Source: Oscillospiraceae bacterium
GTDB taxonomy: Bacteria > Bacillota > Clostridia > Oscillospirales > Acutalibacteraceae
Direction of reading: 5' to 3'
DNA length: 23,238 nucleotides
NCBI GenBank assembly: GCA_019417045.1
Contig: DXWE01000002.1
Coordinates: forward strand, 1 to 23,238
Shown here: in pieces, positions 4,403 through 14,467 of the stretch
How the letters are laid out: each line of letters begins with the position of its first letter
Position numbering within the stretch: the stretch's first letter is position 1
Program-made: the position numbers and the translations under genes
The notes under the pieces: model-generated
Seen by the model: only the letters and a program-made list of their open reading frames with translations
What the model was told of the DNA's origin: nothing
The model's database searches: none

Positions 4403-6811
4403 TTATGCAGAGGCCACCGTGGCCTGCAGAATCAACCGGGCATCCGTGCTGTTGATCGCGCCGTTCCCGTCCACATCCGCCGCCGCCTGCTGCTGCGCAT
4501 CCAGCTCGATCAGCTCCACGGTGAACTGCAACACCAGCCGGGCGTCGCTGCTGTTCACAAGCCCGTCGCCGTTGACGTCTCCCTTTTGCCCCGTGGACAG
4601 GCTGACGGGCATCACCTCGATATAGTCGATCACTGCCTCGCCGCCGAACCCGCCGGAGACCTCAATTGTGTTGACACCGGCCTGCAGCTTCAGTTGGACG
4701 GTCCTGTGCTGTACCATCTCCTCGCTTCCGTTCCGGATCGGGGCCATCTGCACCACGGTACCCGTCCCCTCGCCCGCACGGATGAGGACCGTTTTGTCCG
4801 CATTGCCACTATAGGCGATCGTCACATCATAGGTGCCCTCGGCGGCGACCTCCACCGTAAAGGCCAGCCGATTCAGGGAGGACCAGTTGCCGGCCGTATA
4901 CGCCGCGTTCTTGTCCGAGCCGTTCATCAGCCCGCCGACCGCCTGGCCGCCGGAATACTGGCTGCCGCTCTCGGTGCTGCCCTGCCCGGCGGGAACCGCG
5001 TCCGCGTCCTCCGCCTCATACCGCTGGCTGGACGGGTTCTCCTCGGTCTGTTCTACGGTGGCGGACGGCAGATTCAGCTCGATATAATCGATATTCGCCC
5101 AGGCGCCGCTGCCGACCACACCCGAGACACAGATCTCGTTGGATCCCTCCTGCAGCGTCACGGGAATCGTCTTGGTCCACAGAACATCCCAGCTGCCCGT
5201 TCCCTGCTGCGACAGCTCGACGGTCTGCTGGACGCCGTTCACCTTTACGAGAATGGTCTTGTCGTCGTCCCCGTTATACCCGATCCGGAGCTGATACTCG
5301 CCGGCCTTTTCCACCTGTAACCGATACTGTACGTAGCGGATGTTAGACCAGTCTGCACTCACCTGACTGATCGGGATCTCCGACCCGAGCCCACCCGCGG
5401 CGAGCTTGCCGGAGAAGAAGGTTTGCCGCTCGAATCCGGTCGGCGCATCCTCCTTGTCCATGTTGGAATTCACCACCGTCGCGTAGACGGGATCCTCTGC
5501 CTCAAACCGGGTCCAGCCCGTCTCCACCGCCGGAGACTGGCTGTCGGCGATGGCCTCTTTCACATAGTCGACCGTACTGGTTTTGTTGAAACCCAGAGTG
5601 CTCAGGGTGCTACCCCACTTCTGTTTGATCGTCTCGAAAGAGTCGTTGTAGGGATCGACTTCCGGCAGATCCTTCCAGTACCAGAACCAGTTGCCGTTGT
5701 TGCCCTTGCCGCCCTTGTAGCTCCAGGTCGTCCAGTGAATCCCATACTTGGTATATACATCGAAGGATTCCATATTGCTGAACTCGCCCATATACCCGGC
5801 GACGCCATATGCCTTCATGTTCTCGAACAGATCCTGGACCTCGTTTTCAAACGCCCAGATATAATCGGAATAGGTGTGGATCTGGTACATCATGTTGTAC
5901 CAGCCCTCCTCTGCGGGATCCGGCAGATAATTGCTGCTCCAGATACCCTCCAGCGTGATGATATGGCGGGTATCCACTTCACGGATCGCGGCCACCATCC
6001 GCCGGTAGATGCTGTTCGTCATCTCCTGGGTGGAGGAGAGCTGGGGCAGATAGAAATGCTCGTGCCCCCAGCTGCTGCCGTTGTTCTGCGGCTCGTTCAT
6101 GATGTCGTACGCCGCCACCGCCGGCTCGTCCTTATACCGCTCGGCGATCGCCACCCACAGCTTCTCCATGGCGGCCTGATACGCCTCATTGGTGTACAGA
6201 TCGTTTTCCTCCAGCGTCCCGGTGCTGTGATTGAGGCTCTGCCCACCGGGGCAGCCGTGCATGTCGAGGATCACGTACATCCCGCGCCGGCTCGCCTGCT
6301 CGATGGCCCAGTCCAGCCGCTGGAACCCGGGGTTGTCGTCCGGATCCTCGGTGATCCAGTCCCCTTCGGGATTGAGCATGAAGTTGCGGTACCAGAACGG
6401 GATCCGCACCACATTGCAGCCGGCATCGCGGACGACGTCGAAATCATAGCCGGTGATCCAGTTGTCCTGATACGTGTCAAACAGCTCCTGGATCTGCTCC
6501 TGCGTAAAGCCACGGGACTCAAAGACCTCGATCGTGTTGAGGTTGGCCCATTCGTTGTCCTCCCCTGCGATCGGGCACATCCAGTTTTCCTGAATCAGCC
6601 AGCCGCCGAAGTTGGTGCCCTGCAGGAGCACCTTTTCCCCCCGCTGGTTGACGATATCGGTGCCCTGCACATGCAGGAAATCCGCCTCCGTCAGCTGCTC
6701 ACTGGTGCTTGCCGCCGCACTCGTCAGCGGGACGCTCGTCCCCGCCAGCAGGATCGAACACAGCATGCACAGAGACAGCAGTGCGGAAATTCCCCGTTTC
6801 ATCCGTTTCAT
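4403..6811 (-). CDS. Cellulosomal GH5 glycoside hydrolase, 802 aa: signal peptide, GH5 catalytic module, two CBM6/35-like modules, C-terminal type-I dockerin
   Basis: GH5 hallmarks are present: NEP acid/base ('DIMNEPQNNG') and GEF nucleophile ('GYMGEFSN'). Two beta-sandwich modules each end in '..IDYIEL/V', as in CBM6/35. The C-terminus carries duplicated calcium-binding dockerin repeats 'GDVNGDGLVNSSDARLVLQ' and 'ADVDGNGAINSTDARLILQ'. Confidence 0.85.
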   Translation of the reverse strand: MKRMKRGISALLSLCMLCSILLAGTSVPLTSAAASTSEQLTEADFLHVQGTDIVNQRGEKVLLQGTNFGGWLIQENWMCPIAGEDNEWANLNTIEVFESRGFTQEQIQELFDTYQDNWITGYDFDVVRDAGCNVVRIPFWYRNFMLNPEGDWITEDPDDNPGFQRLDWAIEQASRRGMYVILDMHGCPGGQSLNHSTGTLEENDLYTNEAYQAAMEKLWVAIAERYKDEPAVAAYDIMNEPQNNGSSWGHEHFYLPQLSSTQEMTNSIYRRMVAAIREVDTRHIITLEGIWSSNYLPDPAEEGWYNMMYQIHTYSDYIWAFENEVQDLFENMKAYGVAGYMGEFSNMESFDVYTKYGIHWTTWSYKGGKGNNGNWFWYWKDLPEVDPYNDSFETIKQKWGSTLSTLGFNKTSTVDYVKEAIADSQSPAVETGWTRFEAEDPVYATVVNSNMDKEDAPTGFERQTFFSGKLAAGGLGSEIPISQVSADWSNIRYVQYRLQVEKAGEYQLRIGYNGDDDKTILVKVNGVQQTVELSQQGTGSWDVLWTKTIPVTLQEGSNEICVSGVVGSGAWANIDYIELNLPSATVEQTEENPSSQRYEAEDADAVPAGQGSTESGSQYSGGQAVGGLMNGSDKNAAYTAGNWSSLNRLAFTVEVAAEGTYDVTIAYSGNADKTVLIRAGEGTGTVVQMAPIRNGSEEMVQHRTVQLKLQAGVNTIEVSGGFGGEAVIDYIEVMPVSLSTGQKGDVNGDGLVNSSDARLVLQFTVELIELDAQQQAAADVDGNGAINSTDARLILQATVASA

Positions 6812-6830
6812 CTGACAACCGACCCCTTTC

Positions 6831-8759
6831 TTAACCGCTGACAGCCGTCTGTAAAATCAGGCGGGCGTCAGAACTGTTGATCTGCCCATTCACATCCATA
6901 TCCGCCAGCACCTGCTCGTCGATCGTCAGCTCCCTCAGGTCGACGGTCGCCTGCAGGACCATACGCGCGTCGCTGCTGTTGACAAAGCCATCCTGATTGA
7001 CATCCCCCTGCCGGATAGCCGGCTTGGGTTTGCCGATATCGATATAATCGTAGTTGATCCAGTTGTCATTGGCGGCTCCCTGCGTGCTGCCGGTGAGCCA
7101 GAGAACGGTGGTACCGGCGGGAAGCTCCACATCCCACGACCGTGTCTGCACCGTCTGCCAGCCGCCTGTTGAGGGCAGCGCCAGCCGCTCCCAGCTCTCC
7201 GCCGGCTGATCCCCCACCCGGAGATAGGCAATCACCTGTGTGGTGGTGGTCGCGTATCCGATCCGCAGCCGGTAGACCCCGGCCTCCGGCACGGTCACCG
7301 TGAATTTGACATACGGCACATTCGACCAGTCGGAGGCGATCTCCGAAACAGTCTGGATCTCGGCGTCGGTATTCAGGTTGCCGATAAACTGCCGGCCGGA
7401 GAAATTCTCGTTGTTGGTATTGAGCTTGGCGTTCTCGCTCCACTCGCCCTTTTCCGCCTCATACCGCGTCCAGGACTCCACCAGACTGTCGTCCGGGTCC
7501 ACATACGCGGCGGCCCGCACGGCGTCGATCACCCAGTCGTTGGCCTGGAAATTGCCGCTGTCCGTGCGCAGGGCACTGCCCCATTTCTGCTTGATCGTCT
7601 CAAAGGAATCACTGGTGGTATCGGCGATCGGCAGATCCGAGACAAACCAGCCCCAGCCACCGACCTGCTTGCCCGCCTTATACGTCCAGGTGGTCCAGCT
7701 GATCCCGCTCTGCTCGCAGATCGCGATCCCGTCCAGGTTGCTGAACTCGCCGACATAGCCCGCCACGCCGTAGCGGTTGCACACGTCCACCAGGCTGTCG
7801 ATGCCGCTCTGGAATCCCTCGTTATCGTTGTACAGGTGAAGCTGGTACATCATGTTGGTCCAGCCGTACTGTGCCGGATCGGGCAGATTGGAGATGCTCC
7901 AGATCCCCTCGATCGTGATCACATGGTCCGGATCCTGCTCCCGGATCACCGGGATCATCATGGCATAGATCTTGTTGGAGAGCTCCCACGAGGTGGGGTC
8001 ATTATAGGGATCCCAGTTGTTCGGGCCGTCGTAACCCGCGTTGTTCTGCGGCTCGTTCATCACGTCGTAAGCCGCGACCGCGGGCTCGTCCTTGTACCGC
8101 TCGGCAATCGCCGCCCACAGGCTCTTCATGGCCTCCTGGTAGACGGTATTGGTATAGAGCTCATTCTTGCCGAGCGTACCACAGCAGTGATCCTTGCTCT
8201 GCCCGCCGGGACAGCCGTGCATGTCCAGGATCACATACATCCCGCGCTCTTTGCACTCCTCAATCACCCAGTCCAGCCGCAAAAACCCGGGATTTTCGTC
8301 CGGATTCTCGTTGATCCAGGTGCCCGAGGCACTGGTCATGAAGTTGCGGTACCAGAACGGCACGCGCACCACATTGGCGCCTGTCTCCGCAATGAGATCC
8401 AAATCATATTCGGTGATCCAGTTGTCCTGATAGGTGTCAAACAGCTCCTGGATCTGCGCCTCGGTAAAGCCCCGGTTTTGCAGCGCTGCAATGCTGTCGA
8501 GGTTGGCCCACTGCCGGTCCTCGCCGTTGACCGGGCACATCCAGCTCTCCTGGATCAGCCAGCCGCCGAGGTTCACCCCGCGCAGCACCACCGTCTCCCC
8601 CTTGCGGTTGACCAGCTTTCCGTCCTCCACCGACAGGAAATCCCAATAATTCAGCGGCTGCCGGGCCGAAGAGGCAGGCAGAGCCGCCGCCGGCAGCGCC
8701 AGCCCGATCAGCAGGCAGACCGACAGAATTCCCGATACCAGTTGCTTCCACTTCTTCAT
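6831..8759 (-). CDS. Cellulosomal GH5 glycoside hydrolase, 643 aa: signal peptide (MKKWKQLVSGILSVCLLIGLALPAAA), GH5, one CBM35-like module, type-I dockerin
   Basis: Paralog of the flanking GH5 genes (LRGVNLGGWLIQESWMCP, NEPQNN, GEFSN). Dockerin repeats are 'GDVNQDGFVNSSDARMVLQ' and 'DMDVNGQINSSDARLILQ'. The start is the ATG at 8759 (RBS GGGAG); the tool ORF runs further upstream to 8960. It lies 19 bp from the next gene, so co-transcription is likely. Confidence 0.85.
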   Translation of the reverse strand: MKKWKQLVSGILSVCLLIGLALPAAALPASSARQPLNYWDFLSVEDGKLVNRKGETVVLRGVNLGGWLIQESWMCPVNGEDRQWANLDSIAALQNRGFTEAQIQELFDTYQDNWITEYDLDLIAETGANVVRVPFWYRNFMTSASGTWINENPDENPGFLRLDWVIEECKERGMYVILDMHGCPGGQSKDHCCGTLGKNELYTNTVYQEAMKSLWAAIAERYKDEPAVAAYDVMNEPQNNAGYDGPNNWDPYNDPTSWELSNKIYAMMIPVIREQDPDHVITIEGIWSISNLPDPAQYGWTNMMYQLHLYNDNEGFQSGIDSLVDVCNRYGVAGYVGEFSNLDGIAICEQSGISWTTWTYKAGKQVGGWGWFVSDLPIADTTSDSFETIKQKWGSALRTDSGNFQANDWVIDAVRAAAYVDPDDSLVESWTRYEAEKGEWSENAKLNTNNENFSGRQFIGNLNTDAEIQTVSEIASDWSNVPYVKFTVTVPEAGVYRLRIGYATTTTQVIAYLRVGDQPAESWERLALPSTGGWQTVQTRSWDVELPAGTTVLWLTGSTQGAANDNWINYDYIDIGKPKPAIRQGDVNQDGFVNSSDARMVLQATVDLRELTIDEQVLADMDVNGQINSSDARLILQTAVSG

Positions 8760-8875
8760 TGTACTACTCCCATTCCTTCTGTGGCATACGCGGGTCTGCA
8801 ACCCGTTTGCCGGATGTGTGCGCGCCAAAGCCGCCGCTCGCCCTGCGCTCGTATGAATTTCTCCTCGTGCGCCCC

Positions 8876-10180
8876 TCAGGCGGCGATTTGTTCCCGGACC
8901 AGCCGGATCAGCTCGGTATTCTCCTGGAAATGCCCTTTGGTGCGCAGGGGATTCCCCCATTTTTCCAGTATTTGCTCATAGGTGTCGGTATAGGGATCCA
9001 CGGCCGCGGGACTTCCCCACACCCAGAACCAGTTGCCCCAGTTGCCGGTGCCTCCCTTGTAGCTCCAGGTGGTCCAACTCAGACCGAGTTCCTCGCAGAT
9101 GGCGATCCCGTCCAGGTTGCTGAACTCGCCGACATACCCGGCCACCTTCCAGTCAGACACCGTGCGAAGGGTCTGCCGGGCGATATCGCGAAATGCGTCG
9201 GTCTCGTCGTACAAATGCACCTGATAGAGCATGTTGGTCCACCCGTAATCGGCGGGATCCGGCAGGTTTTCCGCCCGCCAGATGCCCTGCAGAGAGATCA
9301 CATGCGCCGGATCCACCTCCCGGATCGCGGCCACCAGCCGCGCATAGACCGCATTATACGAATCCCACGCCGCGGGATCCCAGGAATCCACATAATTCGG
9401 ATGGTCCTCAAACCCGCCGTTGTTCTGCGGCTCGTTGAGCACATCATACGCGGCCACCACGGGGCTGTCCTTATAGCGGGCCGCGATCGCCCTCCACAGG
9501 GACTCGGTGGCCAGCTGGCAGGTCTCATCGGTATACAGCCGGTTCTCGCCGAGCGTGCCACAGCAGTGGTTCAGGCTCTGTCCGCCCGGCGCGCCGTGCA
9601 GATCGAGGATCACATACATCCCGCGCTCACCGCACGCCTCGATCAGCCAGTCCAGCCGCAAAAACCCGGGATTCTCGTCGGGATTCTCGGAAATCCAGGT
9701 GCCCGTATCATCCGTCATGAAATTGCGGTACCAAAACGGCACGCGCACCACGTTGCAGCCGGTTTCGGCGATGAGATCCAGATCATATTCGGTGATCCAG
9801 TTGTCCTGATAGGTGTCAAAGAGCGTCTGGATCTGTTCTGCCGTAAACCCCCGCGATTCAAAGACCTCAATGGTGTCGAGATTGGCCCATTCCCCGTCTT
9901 CCCCCACGATCGGACACATCCAGTTCTCCTGGATCAGCCAGCCGCCGAGGTTCACCCCGCGCAGACGGACCGTCTCCCCGTTGCGGTTGACCAGCCGCGA
10001 CTCCTCCACCGAGAGGAAATCCTCATCGGTGATGTGCGCGGGCCGGGACGCCACCGGCCCCTGAGAAGGCGCGGACTCCTCCTGCGAGCCGGCCGGATCC
10101 GAGGCGCACGCCGAAAGCAGCAGCAGCCCGGCGGCGCAGATTGCCAAAACCCCTCTTTTCCACATCGAACGAACCTGCAT
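8876..10180 (-). CDS. GH5 glycoside hydrolase lipoprotein, 434 aa: lipobox signal peptide, catalytic module only, no CBM or dockerin
   Basis: The N-terminus 'MQVRSMWKRGVLAICAAGLLLLSAC' contains an L-L-S-A-C lipobox. The catalytic domain is about 70% identical by eye to the two downstream paralogs and carries the NEP and GEFSN motifs. RBS AAAGGAG lies 7 nt before the ATG. Confidence 0.8.
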   Translation of the reverse strand: MQVRSMWKRGVLAICAAGLLLLSACASDPAGSQEESAPSQGPVASRPAHITDEDFLSVEESRLVNRNGETVRLRGVNLGGWLIQENWMCPIVGEDGEWANLDTIEVFESRGFTAEQIQTLFDTYQDNWITEYDLDLIAETGCNVVRVPFWYRNFMTDDTGTWISENPDENPGFLRLDWLIEACGERGMYVILDLHGAPGGQSLNHCCGTLGENRLYTDETCQLATESLWRAIAARYKDSPVVAAYDVLNEPQNNGGFEDHPNYVDSWDPAAWDSYNAVYARLVAAIREVDPAHVISLQGIWRAENLPDPADYGWTNMLYQVHLYDETDAFRDIARQTLRTVSDWKVAGYVGEFSNLDGIAICEELGLSWTTWSYKGGTGNWGNWFWVWGSPAAVDPYTDTYEQILEKWGNPLRTKGHFQENTELIRLVREQIAA

Positions 10181-10226
10181 ACAGCACTCCTTTTTCTCAT
10201 AATCGGGATGTCAAAACAGCTCATAC

Positions 10227-10269
10227 ATCTTACCATATAGAAAAACGTTTTTCAATATAAAATTGAAAA
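10227..10269 (-). promoter_or_regulatory. Putative promoter of the GH5 operon: TTGAAA -35 (complement of 10250-10255), 17 bp, TAAGAT -10 (complement of 10227-10232). Overlapped by the palindromes GAAAAACGTTTTTC (10240-10253) and TTTTCAAT-ATAAA-ATTGAAAA (10249-10269).
   Basis: An AT-rich island sits in otherwise GC-rich DNA immediately upstream of the first GH5 gene. The hexamers and palindromes were read directly. Confidence 0.3.
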
Positions 10270-10432
10270 AACTGTATAGATACCCAACAATTTCACCAGA
10301 GTTCTGGGCAGCTTTTCCAAAAACGCACTTTCGTTTTTGTGAGGATTGCCGCCGGTTATTCCGTCATGAGCGGACATGTGCCTGCCGGTTTTACCGTGCC
10401 TTCCCCCGCTCTACTTTTTCCCGGGGAATGCA

Positions 10433-10465
10433 AAAGCTGTGTGCGGCAGACTGCCGCACACAGCT
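10433..10465 (-). terminator. Near-perfect 15-16 bp inverted repeat (AAGCTGTGTGCGGCAG / CTGCCGCACACAGCTT) downstream of floT. Probable terminator.
   Basis: It lies 16 nt after the floT stop on the minus strand. It is followed by TTTGCATTCC, a short U-tract. Confidence 0.5.
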
Positions 10466-10480
10466 TGTTGGGAATTTGGT

Positions 10481-11893
10481 TTATTGGGCGGATCCCTCGG
10501 ACACGTCCTTTTCGGCCGCGATCTCCCTGCCGAGGAACTCGGGAATCTGCAATCCCGCCATCTTGAACGTCTCGTTCAGCGGAGGAATGGATTTCATCAG
10601 GTTGCTCAGGAAGTTCGCGGTGGTGGAGCTGCCATTTTCGCCGTTCATGCTGTCCCACACGGTGACCTTGTCGATGTGGAGGTTCTTGACCGCCTCCACC
10701 TGGATCTTGGTCAGCTCCTCGATCTTGTCGACGAGCATCAGCTGCACGGCCTCGGCCGACCCGCCGGCCGCCTTGACAATCTCCTCAAACCCGGCCGCCT
10801 GCTTGGACAGGATCTCCTGCACGCCCCGCGCCTGCGCCTCCATCTTGGCATAGATGGCGTCCGCCTCGCCCTTGGCGAGCCGGCGGGCCTGTTCGGCCTC
10901 GGCTTCCGCCTCGAGCACCTTGCGCTCCTTCTCGATCCGGGCTTTGACGATGACATCCGCCTCTTGGGTGGCGAGTTCGCGGGCGGCACGCGCCTTTTCC
11001 GCGACCTCCTCGGCCGCATATGCCTCTTCGCGCGCCTTGGCCTCGGCGAGCTTTTCAGCGGTCACGGCACGGCGCAGGGCGTCGGCCTCCTGCTCGCGGC
11101 GGGTGGCATCGGACTGCGCGATCTCCGCCTTGGAGGTGTTTTCCCCGTCCACAGCCGTCGCGTTGGCCGCCGCCACCGAGATCCGCTGGTCGCGCACCGC
11201 GTTTGCCTCGCCGATGGAGCCCTCGCGGTTGCGCTCCGCCACCGAGATCCGGGCCTCATTGATGGCCTTGGCGGCCGCCTCTTTGCCGAGCGCCTCGATG
11301 TATCCCGATTCGTCGCTGATATCGGTCACGTTTACGTTGATCAGCCGCAGGCCGATCTTGCGCAGCTCGCTCTCCACGTTCGAGGACACCGCCGCCAGGA
11401 ATTTGTCGCGGTCGGTGTTGATCTCCTCGATCTGCATGGTCGCGATGATCAGGCGCATCTGGCCGAAGATGATGTCCTTGGCGAGATCCTGGATCTCCTG
11501 CGGACGCAGCCCGAGCAGCCGCTCGGCCGCGTTTTGCATGGTGCCCGGCTCGGTCGAGATCCCGACCGTGAACCGTGCAGGCACGTCGATCCGGATGTTC
11601 TGCCGCGACAGGGCGCTCTTGAGATCCACGCTCAGCGACATGGGCGTCAGATCGAGATACCGGTAATCCTGGATCACCGGCCACACAAAGGCCGCGCCGC
11701 CGTGAATGCACCGGGCACTGCGCGCGGTGCCGTCCTTGTTCAGCCCCACCTTACCGTAGATGACCATCACCTTGTCGGACGGGCACCGGCGATAGCGGCT
11801 CATCAGCCACATAAACAGGCCGAACACCACCAGCACCGCCGCCACAATGGCGACTACCCCCGCCACGGGGATGTTGAGCAACAACCCTCTCAT
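10481..11893 (-). CDS. floT: Flotillin (SPFH/band-7 family, FloT/YuaG-like), 470 aa
   Basis: N-terminal hydrophobic hairpin, an SPFH domain, then a long Ala/Glu-rich coiled-coil (EAEAEAEQARRLAKGEADAIYAK...) and C-terminal tail typical of bacterial flotillin-1-like proteins. RBS AAGAAGGAG. Confidence 0.85.
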   Translation of the reverse strand: MRGLLLNIPVAGVVAIVAAVLVVFGLFMWLMSRYRRCPSDKVMVIYGKVGLNKDGTARSARCIHGGAAFVWPVIQDYRYLDLTPMSLSVDLKSALSRQNIRIDVPARFTVGISTEPGTMQNAAERLLGLRPQEIQDLAKDIIFGQMRLIIATMQIEEINTDRDKFLAAVSSNVESELRKIGLRLINVNVTDISDESGYIEALGKEAAAKAINEARISVAERNREGSIGEANAVRDQRISVAAANATAVDGENTSKAEIAQSDATRREQEADALRRAVTAEKLAEAKAREEAYAAEEVAEKARAARELATQEADVIVKARIEKERKVLEAEAEAEQARRLAKGEADAIYAKMEAQARGVQEILSKQAAGFEEIVKAAGGSAEAVQLMLVDKIEELTKIQVEAVKNLHIDKVTVWDSMNGENGSSTTANFLSNLMKSIPPLNETFKMAGLQIPEFLGREIAAEKDVSEGSAQ

Positions 11894-11950
11894 GTTTCCG
11901 CACTCCTTCTTTTAGTTAAAATATTGTATAATTTCTTAAAATAATGCCCA

Positions 11951-12712
11951 TTATACCGGAATGACCACCAGGATATCTCCCGGCGCCACACCGATCACCC
12001 GTACCTGCCGACCGTTTTCGAGAGGCGCCCGGTCGGAGACGGCGTCAAAATCCAACAGCCGTTCCTGTACCATGACCGTGACCTTTCCCTTGCCTCCCTG
12101 TGGGATGGTGAGATACACCTCTCCCACCTGGCCAACGGCGTTGCGCACGTCCAGGTTGCCGCTCTGCTGGAGCTTCAACGCCGCCCTCATCAGCCAGGCG
12201 ACCAGGAACAACGCAAGCAATCCCGCCAGCAGCGCGATCGTGACCGCCAGCGCCGGATGCAGCCCGCTGTCGAGCGTGGCAATCGCGGTCCAGCTCCCAA
12301 TGCACAGGAACGCGACAACGCCGCGGAAGGTGAACCAGTGCAGACCGTGCGCGTGCTGCGCGCCCGGGTCGGGCGCGTCGGTTTCGGGGAAGACATCCGG
12401 CTGTCCGTCCCCGGTGGTATCCACACCGCCGTCCACCCAGACGCCGTCCGCATCGGCAGCACCGTCGCCGTTCAAATCGAAGCCACCGTCCACCTGAGCG
12501 CCGTCCGGCATGGCGCCGGCGTCAAAGTCCACACCGCCGACATCCGTACCGACCGCATCCCCTTCCATCCCGCCGCCGAACGCGTCGCCGGTGGTGTGAC
12601 CGAGTCCGATAAACATCAGGACCGTCTGGATGAGCAGCAACAGCGTCGCCGGAAAGGCGACGGCGTACAGCGCCTGGGACAGCGTCGACAGACTGTTCCA
12701 CCACTCCGTCAT
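11951..12712 (-). CDS. NfeD-like membrane protein (YuaF-type flotillin partner), 253 aa, with an ~90-aa Asp/Gly-rich insertion
   Basis: TM helices plus a C-terminal OB-fold (GEVYLTIPQGGKGKVTVMVQ...GRQVRVIGVAPGDILVV) characteristic of NfeD. It sits directly upstream of flotillin, as in B. subtilis yuaF-floT. It overlaps the upstream gene by 4 bp (ATGA). Confidence 0.75.
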   Translation of the reverse strand: MTEWWNSLSTLSQALYAVAFPATLLLLIQTVLMFIGLGHTTGDAFGGGMEGDAVGTDVGGVDFDAGAMPDGAQVDGGFDLNGDGAADADGVWVDGGVDTTGDGQPDVFPETDAPDPGAQHAHGLHWFTFRGVVAFLCIGSWTAIATLDSGLHPALAVTIALLAGLLALFLVAWLMRAALKLQQSGNLDVRNAVGQVGEVYLTIPQGGKGKVTVMVQERLLDFDAVSDRAPLENGRQVRVIGVAPGDILVVIPV

Positions 12713-13335
12713 TTCGCATCTCCCTCCTTTTCCGAGAGGGGTGCCGTCCCCTCTCCCTCTTCTTTAGTATGTTGAATCCTCTCTATATATAACGTCCTGG
12801 CAGACGCCATCAGCAGGGCCGCGCTGATATTCAGCAACATCAGCTCCAGCGCCGTCTGCAATCGGGATTTGGCATCCGGCACGGGGCCCGTATAGTCTTT
12901 CAGTTGCTGTTCCACCAGGTCGTGAATGGTCCGGTGTGTAATGGCCTCCTGCTGCTCCAGCCGGAGCAGCAGCCCGCCGACCAGGGAATACAGCTGCGGC
13001 TCGGGAATGATATCGTCCGCACGGCTGTCCACCCGGCCGTTGATAAAGCCCAGCAGCGTGACAATCTGGTCCAGCTGCATGGTCGGTCGGAGCAGGTTGA
13101 TGAGCAGAATCCGCGCCACCTGCTGCGCGCCATATTTCTTGTTGGTTGGGGCCTCCACCCATCCCCGCTTCACCCAGTTCTGGATGGTCGTCGCCGTCAG
13201 TCCGGTCATCTGTGAGACCTGAGAGAGCTGTAGTCCTCCCCCCGACACTGCGAGGATCGGCTCCAGCACGGAGAACAGATGGTCCTGCTGTCCCGGCGGC
13301 AGCGGGAGGATTGTGCCCGGCAATACCGTTTGCAT
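12709..13335 (-). CDS. DUF1836-type, MerR-like HTH protein (putative transcriptional regulator), 208 aa
   Basis: 'LQLSQVSQMTGLTATTIQNWVKRGWVEAPTNKKYGAQQVARILLINLLR' matches the MerR-type HTH plus wing pattern. RBS AGGAGG lies 6 nt upstream. It is the first gene of the nfeD-floT operon. Confidence 0.6.
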   Translation of the reverse strand: MQTVLPGTILPLPPGQQDHLFSVLEPILAVSGGGLQLSQVSQMTGLTATTIQNWVKRGWVEAPTNKKYGAQQVARILLINLLRPTMQLDQIVTLLGFINGRVDSRADDIIPEPQLYSLVGGLLLRLEQQEAITHRTIHDLVEQQLKDYTGPVPDAKSRLQTALELMLLNISAALLMASARTLYIERIQHTKEEGEGTAPLSEKEGDAK

Positions 13336-13392
13336 ATGCGTCCTCCTTTCCGTTTTTAGAGTTCTTCTGTCTCTCTTGATAAGTTCATTTGC

Positions 13393-13422
13393 ATTGTATC
13401 ATAAGTTCATATGAACTTCAAA
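13393..13422 (-). promoter_or_regulatory. Promoter of the DUF1836-nfeD-floT operon: TTGAAG -35 (complement of 13416-13421), 17 bp, TACAAT -10 (complement of 13393-13398). A 16-bp perfect palindrome AAGTTCATATGAACTT (13403-13418) fills the -35/spacer.
   Basis: Hexamers and palindrome were read directly. An additional ATAAGTTCAT direct repeat lies at 13379-13388, downstream of the -10. Confidence 0.4.
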
Positions 13423-13522
13423 TGGCGTCCAGCTGACTCTTTTGTACTTCTTTGTCAAACCAAGGGGATTATCTCCTTTTATCTCCGCTTTTCTGCCTCT
13501 TATCGCTGATTTTCTCTGTTTC

Positions 13523-13551
13523 TTGCGTCTTTTGTCTGTTTTTGATATACT
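13523..13551 (+). promoter_or_regulatory. Putative folK promoter: TTGCGT, 17 bp, TATACT, within a T/C-rich leader
   Basis: Hexamers lie 23 nt upstream of the RBS GAGGAG and the ATG at 13574. Confidence 0.3.
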
Positions 13552-13573
13552 GTCCTTAATAGAGAGGAGAGCG

Positions 13574-14062
13574 ATGGAAATGCAGGTTTTGATCGGATTG
13601 GGCAGCAATCTGGGGGAGGATCCCGCACAGACGCTTTGCCGGGCACGGGAGGCACTCGACCGGCTGCCGGGCACACAGGTGCAGCGGGTATCCAGTCTGT
13701 ATCGCACCCGGCCGGTCGGCTATGATGACCAGCCCTGGTTTGTCAACCAGGTGGCAGAGCTGTGCTCCGGGCTGTCCCCGCATGCGCTGCTGGGCGCATG
13801 CCTCGGGATTGAGGCGGCGTTCGGCCGGGTGCGGAGCTTTCCCAACGCGCCGCGGGTGCTGGATCTTGATCTGCTGCTGGCCGAAGGTGTGCAGTTGCGG
13901 GATCCGGAGCTCATCCTGCCTCACCCCCGCATGGGAGAGCGCGGGTTTGTGCTCGTCCCGCTCGCCGAGCTGTTTCCGGACCGCACCGTATATGGTTATA
14001 ATTTTCGGGATGCCCTTGCCCGGTGTGATGTCACGGGGGTCGAGCGGCTCGCCGCTGTGTGA
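13574..14062 (+). CDS. folK: 2-amino-4-hydroxy-6-hydroxymethyldihydropteridine pyrophosphokinase (HPPK)
   Basis: 162 aa. 'VLIGLGSNLG', 'RTRPVGYDDQPWFVNQV' and 'RVLDLDLL...LILPHPRMGERGFVLVPLAEL' are HPPK signature blocks. The true start is the ATG at 13574 with RBS GAGGAG. Confidence 0.85.
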   Translation: MEMQVLIGLGSNLGEDPAQTLCRAREALDRLPGTQVQRVSSLYRTRPVGYDDQPWFVNQVAELCSGLSPHALLGACLGIEAAFGRVRSFPNAPRVLDLDLLLAEGVQLRDPELILPHPRMGERGFVLVPLAELFPDRTVYGYNFRDALARCDVTGVERLAAV

Positions 14063-14083
14063 ATGCCCCGTTTCCGTCATTTG

Positions 14084-14173
14084 CACCCGTGTTCCGTCTC
14101 GCGATCCACACCCGTGTCCTGTCCCGCCGCCGGCGCCCATATCCCCATCACGCGATCCACACCCGTGTCCTGT
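14084..14173 (+). repeat. Three copies of the direct repeat CAC(A)CCCGTGTYCYGT. Two copies share the extended 23-bp unit CGCGATCCACACCCGTGTCCTGT (14100-14122 and 14150-14172).
   Basis: Read directly. A second repeat pair CTGCYGGGCCCATCCYGT lies at about 14352-14392. Confidence 0.5.
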
Positions 14174-14467
14174 TCCACCCGCCTGTCCTCACTCCGCCTT
14201 TGCCAGCCACTGTTTTTGACTTTTCCACTCTGCCGCCGGACCCTCCTTCCCGGCCCGGCTCTTTTGATCTGCCGACGTCTGGACTCTTCGCCGCAACCCG
14301 TCCACCCGCCGCCTGCCCGTTGTCCTCAGCCGTGAGCCGGCACGGCTCATCCGGAGTCTATCTGCCGGGCCCATCCCGTATCTGCTGGGCCCATCCTGTC
14401 GCCTGCCCCTGGTGTGCACCCCGTACTCCCTCTTTGTCCCTTGTTGGCTTTCTCTTTGCCCCGCCAT

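Follow-up and report, generated by a model that had tools for sequence, protein, structure and literature searches.

Membrane microdomains in bacteria are organised by flotillins and other SPFH proteins, which also influence the fluidity of the membrane, protein quality control and tolerance of envelope stress. To our knowledge, control of their expression is essentially known for Bacillus alone, through the SigW regulon. In B. subtilis the yuaF-floT-yuaI and yqeZ-floA-yqfB operons each place an NfeD gene before a flotillin/SPFH gene, and both fall within the SigW core regulon, SigW being an ECF sigma factor (PMC3498285). SPFH-NfeD pairing within an operon is likewise conserved in E. coli QmcA-YbbJ and P. 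horikoshii PH1511-PH1510, the OB-fold of NfeD being the SPFH-binding module. For streptococci, gene neighbourhood has led to the proposal that DUF1836 proteins are HTH regulators acting on a neighbouring hemolysin III/PAQR gene (PMC3146951); no operator, structure or SPFH link was given there.

The window, by which we mean the whole 23,238-nt stretch of DNA analysed, contains an operon that shares the NfeD-then-flotillin order of these systems and is headed by a gene of the same Pfam family as the streptococcal proteins. Open reading frame coordinates bear out the sequence-only reading of three overlapping or closely spaced minus-strand genes with the regulator in the lead:

12709 to 13335, minus strand: regulator gene, 208 aa, DUF1836 with a MerR-type winged HTH
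11951 to 12712, minus strand: NfeD gene, 253 aa
10481 to 11893, minus strand: flotillin gene, 470 aa
10431 to 10466, minus strand: intrinsic terminator, a 15-bp perfect stem followed by UUUUG

The regulator gene is preceded by the ribosome binding site GGAGG, its stop codon overlaps the NfeD ATG (ATGA), and 57 nt separate the NfeD stop from the flotillin gene. The terminator lies 16 nt past the flotillin stop codon and folds as RNA at −28.7 kcal/mol (z = −6.4), a stability equalled in 0/200 shuffles. By sequence analysis the three genes thus form one transcription unit, running from a sigma-70-type promoter to the terminator hairpin.

The leading protein matches Pfam DUF1836 (PF08876; 54.5 bits against a cut-off of 27, E = 1.4e-14), as do its homologues, and also MerR_1 (28.2 bits against 21.6). 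These matches and the fold, an N-terminal MerR-type winged HTH with helices at residues 37–44 and 48–56 followed by an all-helical C-terminal domain, confirm that a MerR-like HTH protein heads the operon. The segment QNWVKRGWV of the recognition helix is identical in all 82 homologues. A profile search of the regulator against PDB sequences returned only noise (amyloid precursor through the word WxKRGW; MerR at E = 0.49), so that structure comparison was needed; the MerR-fold matches included CbpM and DafA. NCBIfam holds no model for either the regulator or the 253-aa NfeD, and no homologues were found on plasmids.

The 253-aa protein consists of a transmembrane helix, an acidic disordered linker of about 80 aa, two further transmembrane helices and a C-terminal OB-fold, with helices predicted at residues 10–35, 129–148 and 153–185 in a structure model run with database homologues. 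It scores 15.3 bits against Pfam NfeD (PF01957), below the gathering threshold of 29.1, and hhalign against canonical short NfeDs gave a probability of only 11%. When the AlphaFold model was compared with the PDB by Foldseek, however, the top five matches were all NfeD proteins (YuaF 2k14, 3wwv, YbbJ 8z5g, 3cp0 and 2k5h), the best being B. subtilis YuaF 2k14 (E = 3.3e-5), which a profile search of PDB sequences with the 253-aa protein reached at E = 0.019. With its C-terminal OB-fold, membrane-embedded N-terminal part and SPFH operon partner, the modelled protein is a divergent NfeD member, and the original label stands although the Pfam threshold is missed. The label FloT for the third protein needs qualification. 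A hydrophobic N-terminal membrane anchor and a Glu/Ala-rich coiled-coil tail are evident from its translation, and Pfam places an SPFH/Band_7 domain at residues 56–221 (E = 1.1e-26), but it scores 153.9 bits against the NCBIfam FloT equivalog, whose cut-off is 700; it is flotillin-like without being equivalent to the FloT of B. subtilis.

The elements of the operon promoter, found by promoter scan, inspection of the sequence and comparison with homologous promoters, are as follows:

13416 to 13421, minus strand: −35 hexamer TTGAAG
13393 to 13401, minus strand: TG-extended −10 element TGATACAAT, with TG at 13401–13400 and TACAAT at 13398–13393
13403 to 13418, no strand assigned: operator O1, the perfect 16-bp palindrome AAGTTCATATGAACTT
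13381 to 13388, minus strand: half-site ATGAACTT, candidate second operator, with GAAC at 13386–13383 over the transcription start predicted near 13386
13360 to 13364, minus strand: half-site GAACT in the leader

The promoter scan thus gives TTGAAG-17-TACAAT with a TG extension. The conserved core of O1, GTTCATATGAAC at 13405–13416, lies within the 17-bp spacer and takes as its first base the last base of the −35 hexamer. Both the palindrome and the direct repeat downstream of the −10 element had been noticed beforehand and are present: ATGAACTTAT occurs at 13410–13401 and again at 13388–13379. All three copies of ATGAACTT in the window fall within 38 nt of the operon promoter; 0.36 copies were expected, and three were reached in 1/100 shuffles. 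Measured from the GAAC of O1, that of the candidate second operator is 22 bp away and the leader half-site 44 bp, or four helical turns. An RNA element behind these GAAC repeats was considered and dropped, because the leader adopts no stable RNA fold; an Rfam search of 10000–14200 returned nothing credible. Perfect 16-bp palindromes number three in the window against 0.5 expected, and 38% of shuffles contain at least one, so the palindrome by itself is statistically unremarkable. Its significance comes from its position, its repetition and, decisively, its conservation across species.

Homologous promoters were compared across species whose regulators are 37–63% identical. In about 78 of 81, GTTCA-N2-TGAAC sits at an identical position of a spacer fixed at 17 bp, within a shared pattern, TTGnnG-TTCAnnTGAAC-yTGTGA-TATAAT, that shows no length variation. 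Among the 71 aligned promoters the TTG of the −35 element is kept in 68–70 and the operator core bases in 54–71, while the two central bases vary; the family −10 consensus is TGTGATATAAT, and the DNA upstream of −35 is unalignable. Since conservation of the −35 and −10 elements is expected of any promoter, only the 12-bp core counts as specific evidence. Allowing one mismatch at most, the operator was matched 60 times within 20 kb of promoter-zone sequence and 17 times in the 730 kb outside it, a more than 100-fold enrichment. Locus L023 carries the symmetric variant GGTCA..TGACC, and L042 has the palindrome downstream of the −10 element instead of in the spacer. At L047, L061 and L071 the motif is visible farther downstream, the start codons first taken there having misplaced the promoters. 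Absence of the palindrome from orthologous loci had been set beforehand as a refuting test; it is retained there at the same promoter position, and at paralogous loci as well.

Additional half-sites distinguish the clade of the window. A GAAC at +22 is found in 22/22 of its promoters against 0/55 others, and a further GAAC at +42 to +44 in 12/22. The half-site at 13381–13388 is invariant in relatives at 89% and 80% identity, and the leader GAACT recurs in L158 and L160.

The association of the site with DUF1836 genes was recovered by a metagenome search that used only the 29-nt promoter-operator pattern and was blind to neighbouring genes. It returned 73 sites, and a DUF1836 gene followed within 30–240 nt at 65 of the 71 that had room for one; the site in L124 is followed directly by NfeD and Band_7 genes, without a regulator gene. 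DUF1836 genes of this subfamily adjoin SPFH/NfeD genes far beyond the present operon, and hundreds of gut Clostridia share the combination of gene, operator and SPFH cargo. The system spans at least 586 species-level loci within an order of Clostridia that is abundant in gut and rumen, the organisms concerned all being uncultured. An SPFH gene lies directly downstream of the regulator in 62/80 loci, often with NfeD, and comes from four subfamilies: flotillin and three other Band_7 types. Elsewhere the regulator is followed by YbjQ alone (12/80) or by nothing related (6/80), so control of SPFH genes does not extend to the whole regulator subfamily; the operator nevertheless accompanies the DUF1836 gene at these YbjQ and stand-alone loci. 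No hemolysin III gene was found in the loci examined. The suggested circuit is not peculiar to flotillin: at least four SPFH subfamilies would come under this regulator and operator, replaced at times by YbjQ or by nothing adjacent. The predicted core regulon comprises SPFH/NfeD operons of the four subfamilies plus a few transporters.

Some regulators carry further domains. In 12 protein clusters the regulator is fused to the NfeD C-terminal OB-fold, the SPFH-binding domain; this subfamily has the recognition helix QNWTKRGWV, and its promoters show variant half-sites at the same position. Regulators of a sister group bear long, disordered tails whose end carries the conserved motif KP[VIW]YF[RK][RK]. 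Such long-tailed forms had been suspected in the interval separating regulator from SPFH_C genes, but the regulators there are about 188 aa long.

We propose, with a probability of roughly 0.7, that the DUF1836 protein is a negatively autoregulated repressor of the regulator-NfeD-flotillin operon, acting through GTTCA-N2-TGAAC in the spacer of its own promoter. According to this model, which is built from sequence comparison, the 208-aa protein would be a MerR-fold transcription factor, presumably dimeric, that binds the inverted repeat within the 17-bp spacer of its strong sigma-A-type promoter and, in the clade of the window, also the phased GAAC half-sites that cover the start of transcription and the leader. 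Bound regulator would occlude RNA polymerase and repress both the operon and itself, keeping expression of the SPFH membrane scaffold homeostatic and inducible. The trigger for release would be a signal tied to the state of the membrane or of SPFH assembly, which the protein would sense either with its helical C-terminal domain or by contacting the NfeD/SPFH products. DNA binding, the repressive direction and the signal are what we infer here; the palindrome could in principle be bound by another factor, with the regulator binding elsewhere.

A more specific version, which we regard as tentative and rather doubtful, makes the regulator a product-feedback sensor of SPFH scaffold assembly, held or released at the membrane by contact with NfeD/SPFH. 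Free regulator, and hence repression of the operon, would then report the amount of unassembled or stressed scaffold, in a manner likened to GlnR with glutamine synthetase and HspR with DnaK. The translational coupling of regulator and NfeD, the 12 fusion clusters and the conserved tail ends of the sister group hint at such contact.

The fold of the regulator and a palindrome whose centre lies between −35 and −10, like those of the MerR, CueR, SoxR and BmrR promoters, would also suit a classical MerR-type activator, which binds the spacer with weak resting repression until a ligand causes it to untwist the DNA, realigning −35 and −10 and activating the operon. Activation of this kind requires a suboptimal spacer of 19–20 bp, and neither the window nor any aligned promoter has the palindrome in such an over-long spacer: the earlier suggestion of a MerR-type operator holds for the position of the site but not for the spacer length. 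The 17-bp spacer in every aligned promoter, the near-consensus hexamers and the TG-extended −10 make simple repression likelier than MerR-type activation, as do the position of the L042 palindrome and the GAAC half-sites at +22 and about +43, which cover the start site and leader in the window's clade. The core palindrome is, moreover, just 12 bp. Activation of this type is accordingly improbable.

MerR-fold proteins include chaperone modulators that do not bind DNA, and the DUF1836 protein might, like CbpM/DafA, be a partner that modulates NfeD/SPFH by protein contact while an unrelated regulator uses the palindrome. This is quite unlikely given the invariant HTH recognition helix, the presence of the site beside DUF1836 genes that lack SPFH neighbours, the altered helix and half-sites of the fusion subfamily, and a blind motif search that yields almost only DUF1836 genes; DNA binding and protein contacts are in any case compatible. 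Least credible by far is a palindrome without specific role, whether due to chance, purely a promoter feature or a global-regulator site (LexA, Cheo box): a single perfect 16-bp palindrome is nothing unusual in 23 kb and GAAC/GTTC are also LexA half-sites of Firmicutes, but spacers are normally unconserved, whereas this core with its variable centre persists across distant species and is enriched in DUF1836 promoters, its arms are too short and its 2-nt centre too small for a hairpin, and it lies upstream of the transcript. LexA and the Cheo box were rejected because GTTC-N4-GAAC reverses the half-site orientation of the SOS operator CGAAC-N4-GTTCG and because the site accompanies DUF1836 genes.

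The searchable literature yielded no description of such a regulator circuit for flotillin operons, in agreement with the initial claim of novelty, and the DUF1836 protein is a candidate for the first dedicated regulator of these genes in bacteria. The repressor model would give a DUF family a definite function open to experiment, with operator sequence, promoter architecture and core regulon, and would shift the question from the signal that induces flotillins to what releases the predicted repressor. The regulator-NfeD fusions suggest that a transcription factor may be tied physically and directly to the SPFH scaffold. Together with the hemolysin III/PAQR neighbourhood, DUF1836 proteins could represent a general class of membrane-homeostasis regulators in Firmicutes.

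Compared with the MerR family (MerR, CueR, SoxR, BmrR, TipAL), the system has a spacer of 17 bp instead of 19–20 bp and a regulator co-transcribed with its target rather than divergent from it; its likely mode is repression, and the C-terminal DUF1836 helical domain matches no known effector domain. Bacillus GlnR/TnrA (MerR-fold; glnRA) and HspR (dnaK operon) show no sequence relationship to the regulator beyond the HTH, and the GlnR/TnrA operator TGTNA-N7-TNACA differs from that of the window. The window subfamily, recognised by its [IV]QNWVKRG motif, goes together with SPFH/NfeD, in contrast to the hemolysin III/PAQR-linked DUF1836 proteins. Whereas the Bacillus flotillin operons lack a regulator gene, the window combines a sigma-A-type promoter, a candidate dedicated operator and an in-operon regulator. 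We know of no transcription factor described as a member of QmcA-YbbJ-type SPFH-NfeD operons; here such a predicted factor leads the operon, and 12 clusters show it fused to the OB-fold itself.

The regulator, NfeD and flotillin genes form one compact transcription unit on the minus strand, running from 13421 to 10431. The 238-bp AT-rich region upstream of it is common to the divergent folK gene (39% G+C versus 61% for the window). Genes, promoter, palindrome and repeat were re-checked, and the coordinates and sequences proposed for them in the sequence-only reading were all correct.

13421-13416, minus strand: TTGAAG, -35 element of the operon promoter (promoter scan), followed by a 17-nt spacer
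13398-13393, minus strand: TACAAT, -10 element, with TG extension
13403-13418: O1, candidate operator, a perfect 16-bp palindrome, AAGTTCATATGAACTT
13381-13388: third copy of ATGAACTT
13386-13383 and 13364-13361: extra GAAC sites, two and four helical turns from O1
13335..12709, minus strand: regulator gene, 208 aa
12712..11951, minus strand: NfeD gene, 253 aa; its ATG overlaps the regulator's TGA, giving ATGA
11893..10481, minus strand: flotillin-like gene, 470 aa, 57 nt past the NfeD gene, with its own GGAG ribosome-binding site
16 nt past the flotillin stop, minus strand: terminator hairpin, 15-bp perfect stem, then UUUUG (-28.7 kcal/mol, z = -6.4)

The regulator matches Pfam DUF1836 (E 1.4e-14) and exceeds the cut-off for MerR_1 (28.2 bits; cut-off 21.6). 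Its structure model, built with 82 homologues (pLDDT 92, pTM 0.85), reproduces the MerR DNA-binding domain, comprising helices 37-44 and 48-56, a beta wing, and helices 70-82 and 88-99; the leader protein of the operon thus has a MerR fold, and the MerR-like HTH first proposed from sequence is borne out. Residues Q52-V60 (QNWVKRGWV), across the recognition helix, are invariant in the 82 sequences. Structure comparison gave no match for the remainder of the protein (helices 112-127, 134-144 and 155-194), and a sequence search of the PDB gave no significant match.

The C-terminus of the 253-aa middle protein scored only 15.3 bits against the Pfam NfeD model (cut-off 29.1), its orthologues likewise fell below threshold, and profile-profile comparison with canonical short NfeDs was weak; a profile from 43 homologues matched B. 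subtilis YuaF (2k14) with E 0.019. In the AlphaFold model (pLDDT 76 overall, >90 in folded parts), a TM helix (10-35) is followed by an acidic disordered linker (40-122), a pair of TM helices (129-185) and, last, a five-stranded barrel (196-252). NfeD proteins take all of the top five places when this model is compared with the PDB: YuaF (E 3.3e-5), P. horikoshii 1510-C, E. coli YbbJ (the chain in the QmcA-YbbJ complex structure), 3cp0 and 2k5h. On this structural evidence the protein is an NfeD. The insert between TM1 and TM2 (~80 residues, 40-122; window 12349-12594) is acidic, Gly/Asp-rich and predicted to be disordered; in orthologues it carries His/Asp-rich HDxD-type repeats of variable length, reminiscent of metal-binding linkers. 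The 470-aa third protein matches Pfam Band_7/SPFH (E 1.1e-26) and scores 153.9 bits against the NCBIfam FloT model (equivalog cut-off 700 bits), which makes it flotillin-like, not a FloT equivalog.

Taken alone, the perfect palindrome is unremarkable, because the window contains three of 16 bp and 38% of shuffles contain at least one. The ATGAACTT 8-mer is confined to this promoter within the 23-kb window (0.36 copies expected; three copies in 1/100 shuffles). The case for an operator comes from conservation. Regions upstream of the relatives' regulator genes contain one alignable block, the rest being unalignable. Anchoring 71 promoters on the palindrome gave TTG in 68-70/71, then G64 T60 T71 C71 A54, two variable bases and T61 G71 A71 A64 C71, followed downstream by yTGTGA and TATAAT; the 71 show no length differences, and therefore the spacer is always 17 bp. 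The combined promoter-operator score was >=15/19 in 75 of 81 promoters, and three further loci (L047, L061, L071) carry the same block just downstream of the assigned start codon. The palindrome is conserved at orthologous loci; among the 81 promoters, the block was absent from L011 and L043. Of the operator matches with at most one mismatch in the 750 kb of fetched loci, 60 fell within promoter zones (20 kb in all) and 17 in the other 730 kb; none of these 17 was perfect or in promoter context. One locus (L023) has the symmetric variant GGTCA..TGACC, which is what a dimer site predicts.

Comparison with the two nearest relatives (89% and 80% protein identity) shows an intergenic region that has diverged except at three elements: the -35/O1/-10 block, the start-site copy of ATGAACTT and an additional GAACT. 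Counting from the GAAC of O1, a GAAC occurs at +22 in 22/22 promoters of the window's clade and at +42 to +44 in 12/22; at +22 it occurs in 0/9 distant flotillin-type promoters and 0/46 others. Since the leader RNA does not fold stably (-2.4 kcal/mol, z +0.6) and matches no Rfam family, the simplest reading of these repeats is as putative DNA sites on one helix face. The folK-proximal half of the intergenic region also holds a 20-nt imperfect direct repeat, CCTTTTATCTCCGCTTTTCT / CCTCTTATCGCTGATTTTCT (window 13475-13515, spacing 21), partly kept in the same two relatives.

A scan in which each species was represented by a single genome turned up at least 586 loci encoding relatives of the regulator; the best 80 all belong to Oscillospirales MAGs (Ruminococcaceae, Acutalibacteraceae, Ca. 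Fimenecus, Ca. Avimonas). An SPFH gene follows the regulator at 62 of these best 80, confirming the association of DUF1836 genes with SPFH/NfeD, and its subfamily varies with regulator clade.

Genes after the regulator on the same strand, best 80 of at least 586 loci
Long NfeD and flotillin: 29/80
(DUF6054)-NfeD-Band_7, stomatin-like type: 17/80
Band_7, three further types: 16/80
YbjQ only: 12/80
Nothing related: 6/80

The YbjQ_1 (UPF0145)-only loci (L024-L027, L029, L031, L032, L034-L036, L038, L040) have the same operator and no SPFH gene, which makes YbjQ an alternative cargo. A 110-aa DUF6054 gene lies between the regulator and NfeD-Band_7 at L056, L066, L068-L070, L075, L077, L079-L081 and L084, and is a conserved fourth component of stomatin-like SPFH operons. 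Single insertions are a Bax1-I (BI-1/YccA-like) gene between NfeD and flotillin (L057 6326-7033) and an additional 172-aa membrane protein separating the regulator from NfeD (L048 5579-6097).

A blind search of metagenome contigs with the pattern TTGNNGTTCANNTGAACYTRTGATATAAT returned 73 sites. A DUF1836 homologue lay 30-240 nt downstream at 65 of the 71 with downstream sequence, and an SPFH gene was also present at 29 of the 33 DUF1836-linked sites where 2 kb or more of sequence was available. At L124 the operator-promoter leads straight into NfeD (Pfam E 2e-11) and Band_7, and a regulator gene is absent. Elsewhere the promoter-operator precedes an ABC-2 transporter (L090 and L140), an MFS transporter (L125), a LURP-one-related protein (L134), or a 531-aa membrane protein together with a GDSL lipase (L099). 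Together with these exceptions, the matches therefore suggest that the site marks a small membrane-protein regulon with SPFH/NfeD at its core; the genes at L090/L140, L099, L125 and L134 are candidate trans-regulon members.

We put the probability that the regulator binds this site and autoregulates at roughly 0.7. MerR-type activation of the operon is the main rival, but the 19-20-bp spacer that defines it is missing, the spacer here being 17 bp. Moreover, L042 has a normal promoter with its palindrome, GTTCGTGCGAAC, ten bases past the -10, a position that suits a repressor but not an activator working through the spacer. Repression is accordingly the direction we hold to be likely, if a little less firmly than binding itself. 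With near-consensus elements, a TG extension and a 17-bp spacer, the promoter should be strong on its own, and a protein sitting in the spacer, and in this operon over +1 and the leader as well, would be expected to block it; negative autoregulation, with release dependent on a signal, is favoured for these reasons. The proposal of a dedicated autoregulated circuit is thus supported with two corrections: repression is more likely than MerR-style activation, and the circuit would serve SPFH genes generally rather than flotillin alone.

A full HMM search of the regulator family gave 893, 454 and 223 clusters (50% identity) at E <=1e-3, 1e-10 and 1e-30. In at least 12 representatives the regulator is extended by 100-340 disordered residues; these low-complexity tails, with conserved R-K-T-[VI]-S-Q-A-L-R-E-W-D and C-terminal K-P-[VIW]-Y-F-[RK]-[RK] motifs, mark a sister group (P0223, P0231, P0235, P0225, P0239, P0259, P0275, P0284, P0286, P0302, P0318, P0363), and P0302 has the terminal motif duplicated. 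In P0258 the regulator is fused to the NfeD C-terminal OB-fold without a membrane segment (Pfam NfeD 40.9 bits, cut-off 29.1). This fusion recurs in 12 clusters (66-100% identity, four data sources), which rules out an assembly artefact and indicates that selection maintains it. Fusion genes and their unfused relatives share a conserved synteny with a Band_7 gene ~3 kb away (L161-L165: divergent M50 peptidase, regulator, IreB, RibF, PBP5-type carboxypeptidase, convergent 71-aa gene, Band_7), which would link the subfamily to cell-wall and envelope genes. Its promoters have the same architecture with variant half-sites (TTGACA-ATCACnnGACC...TATAAT), and its recognition helix reads QNWTKRGWV. 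Physical communication between regulator and partner occurs in the GlnR-glutamine synthetase and HspR-DnaK pairs. Because the NfeD OB-fold is the module contacting the SPFH partner (PDB 3wwv and 8z5g descriptions), the fusions suggest, as a lead, that regulator and SPFH scaffold may likewise communicate physically.

Three GH5 cellulase genes lie directly downstream of the operon (window 4403-10180, minus strand; L001 9156-12627). Two carry CBM6 and dockerin modules, and the host is therefore probably a cellulosome-type fibre degrader of Oscillospirales. Just upstream of one (10180..8876) is a promoter-like site, TTGAAA-17-TAAGAT (10255..10227, minus strand), whose spacer contains a 14-bp palindrome, GAAAAACGTTTTTC (window 10240-10253); this palindrome may be the operator of a sugar-responsive repressor.

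DUF1836 has been proposed, from STRING neighbourhood, to regulate adjacent hemolysin III genes in streptococci (PMC3146951); in the literature searched, with subscription journals outside coverage, we found no other functional comment on it, and nothing relevant on a MerR protein, repressor or operator for flotillin, SPFH or NfeD. The B. subtilis operons yuaF-floT-yuaI and yqeZ-floA-yqfB are part of the core SigW regulon (PMC3498285). SPFH genes are an interesting, poorly understood target class for such a repressor, and with an operator defined, auxiliary sites in phase with it and regulator-NfeD fusions occurring in nature, the signalling question becomes open to experiment. The proposed circuit resembles autoregulated HTH repressors with an operator in the promoter in its architecture, and differs from them in its SPFH target class.
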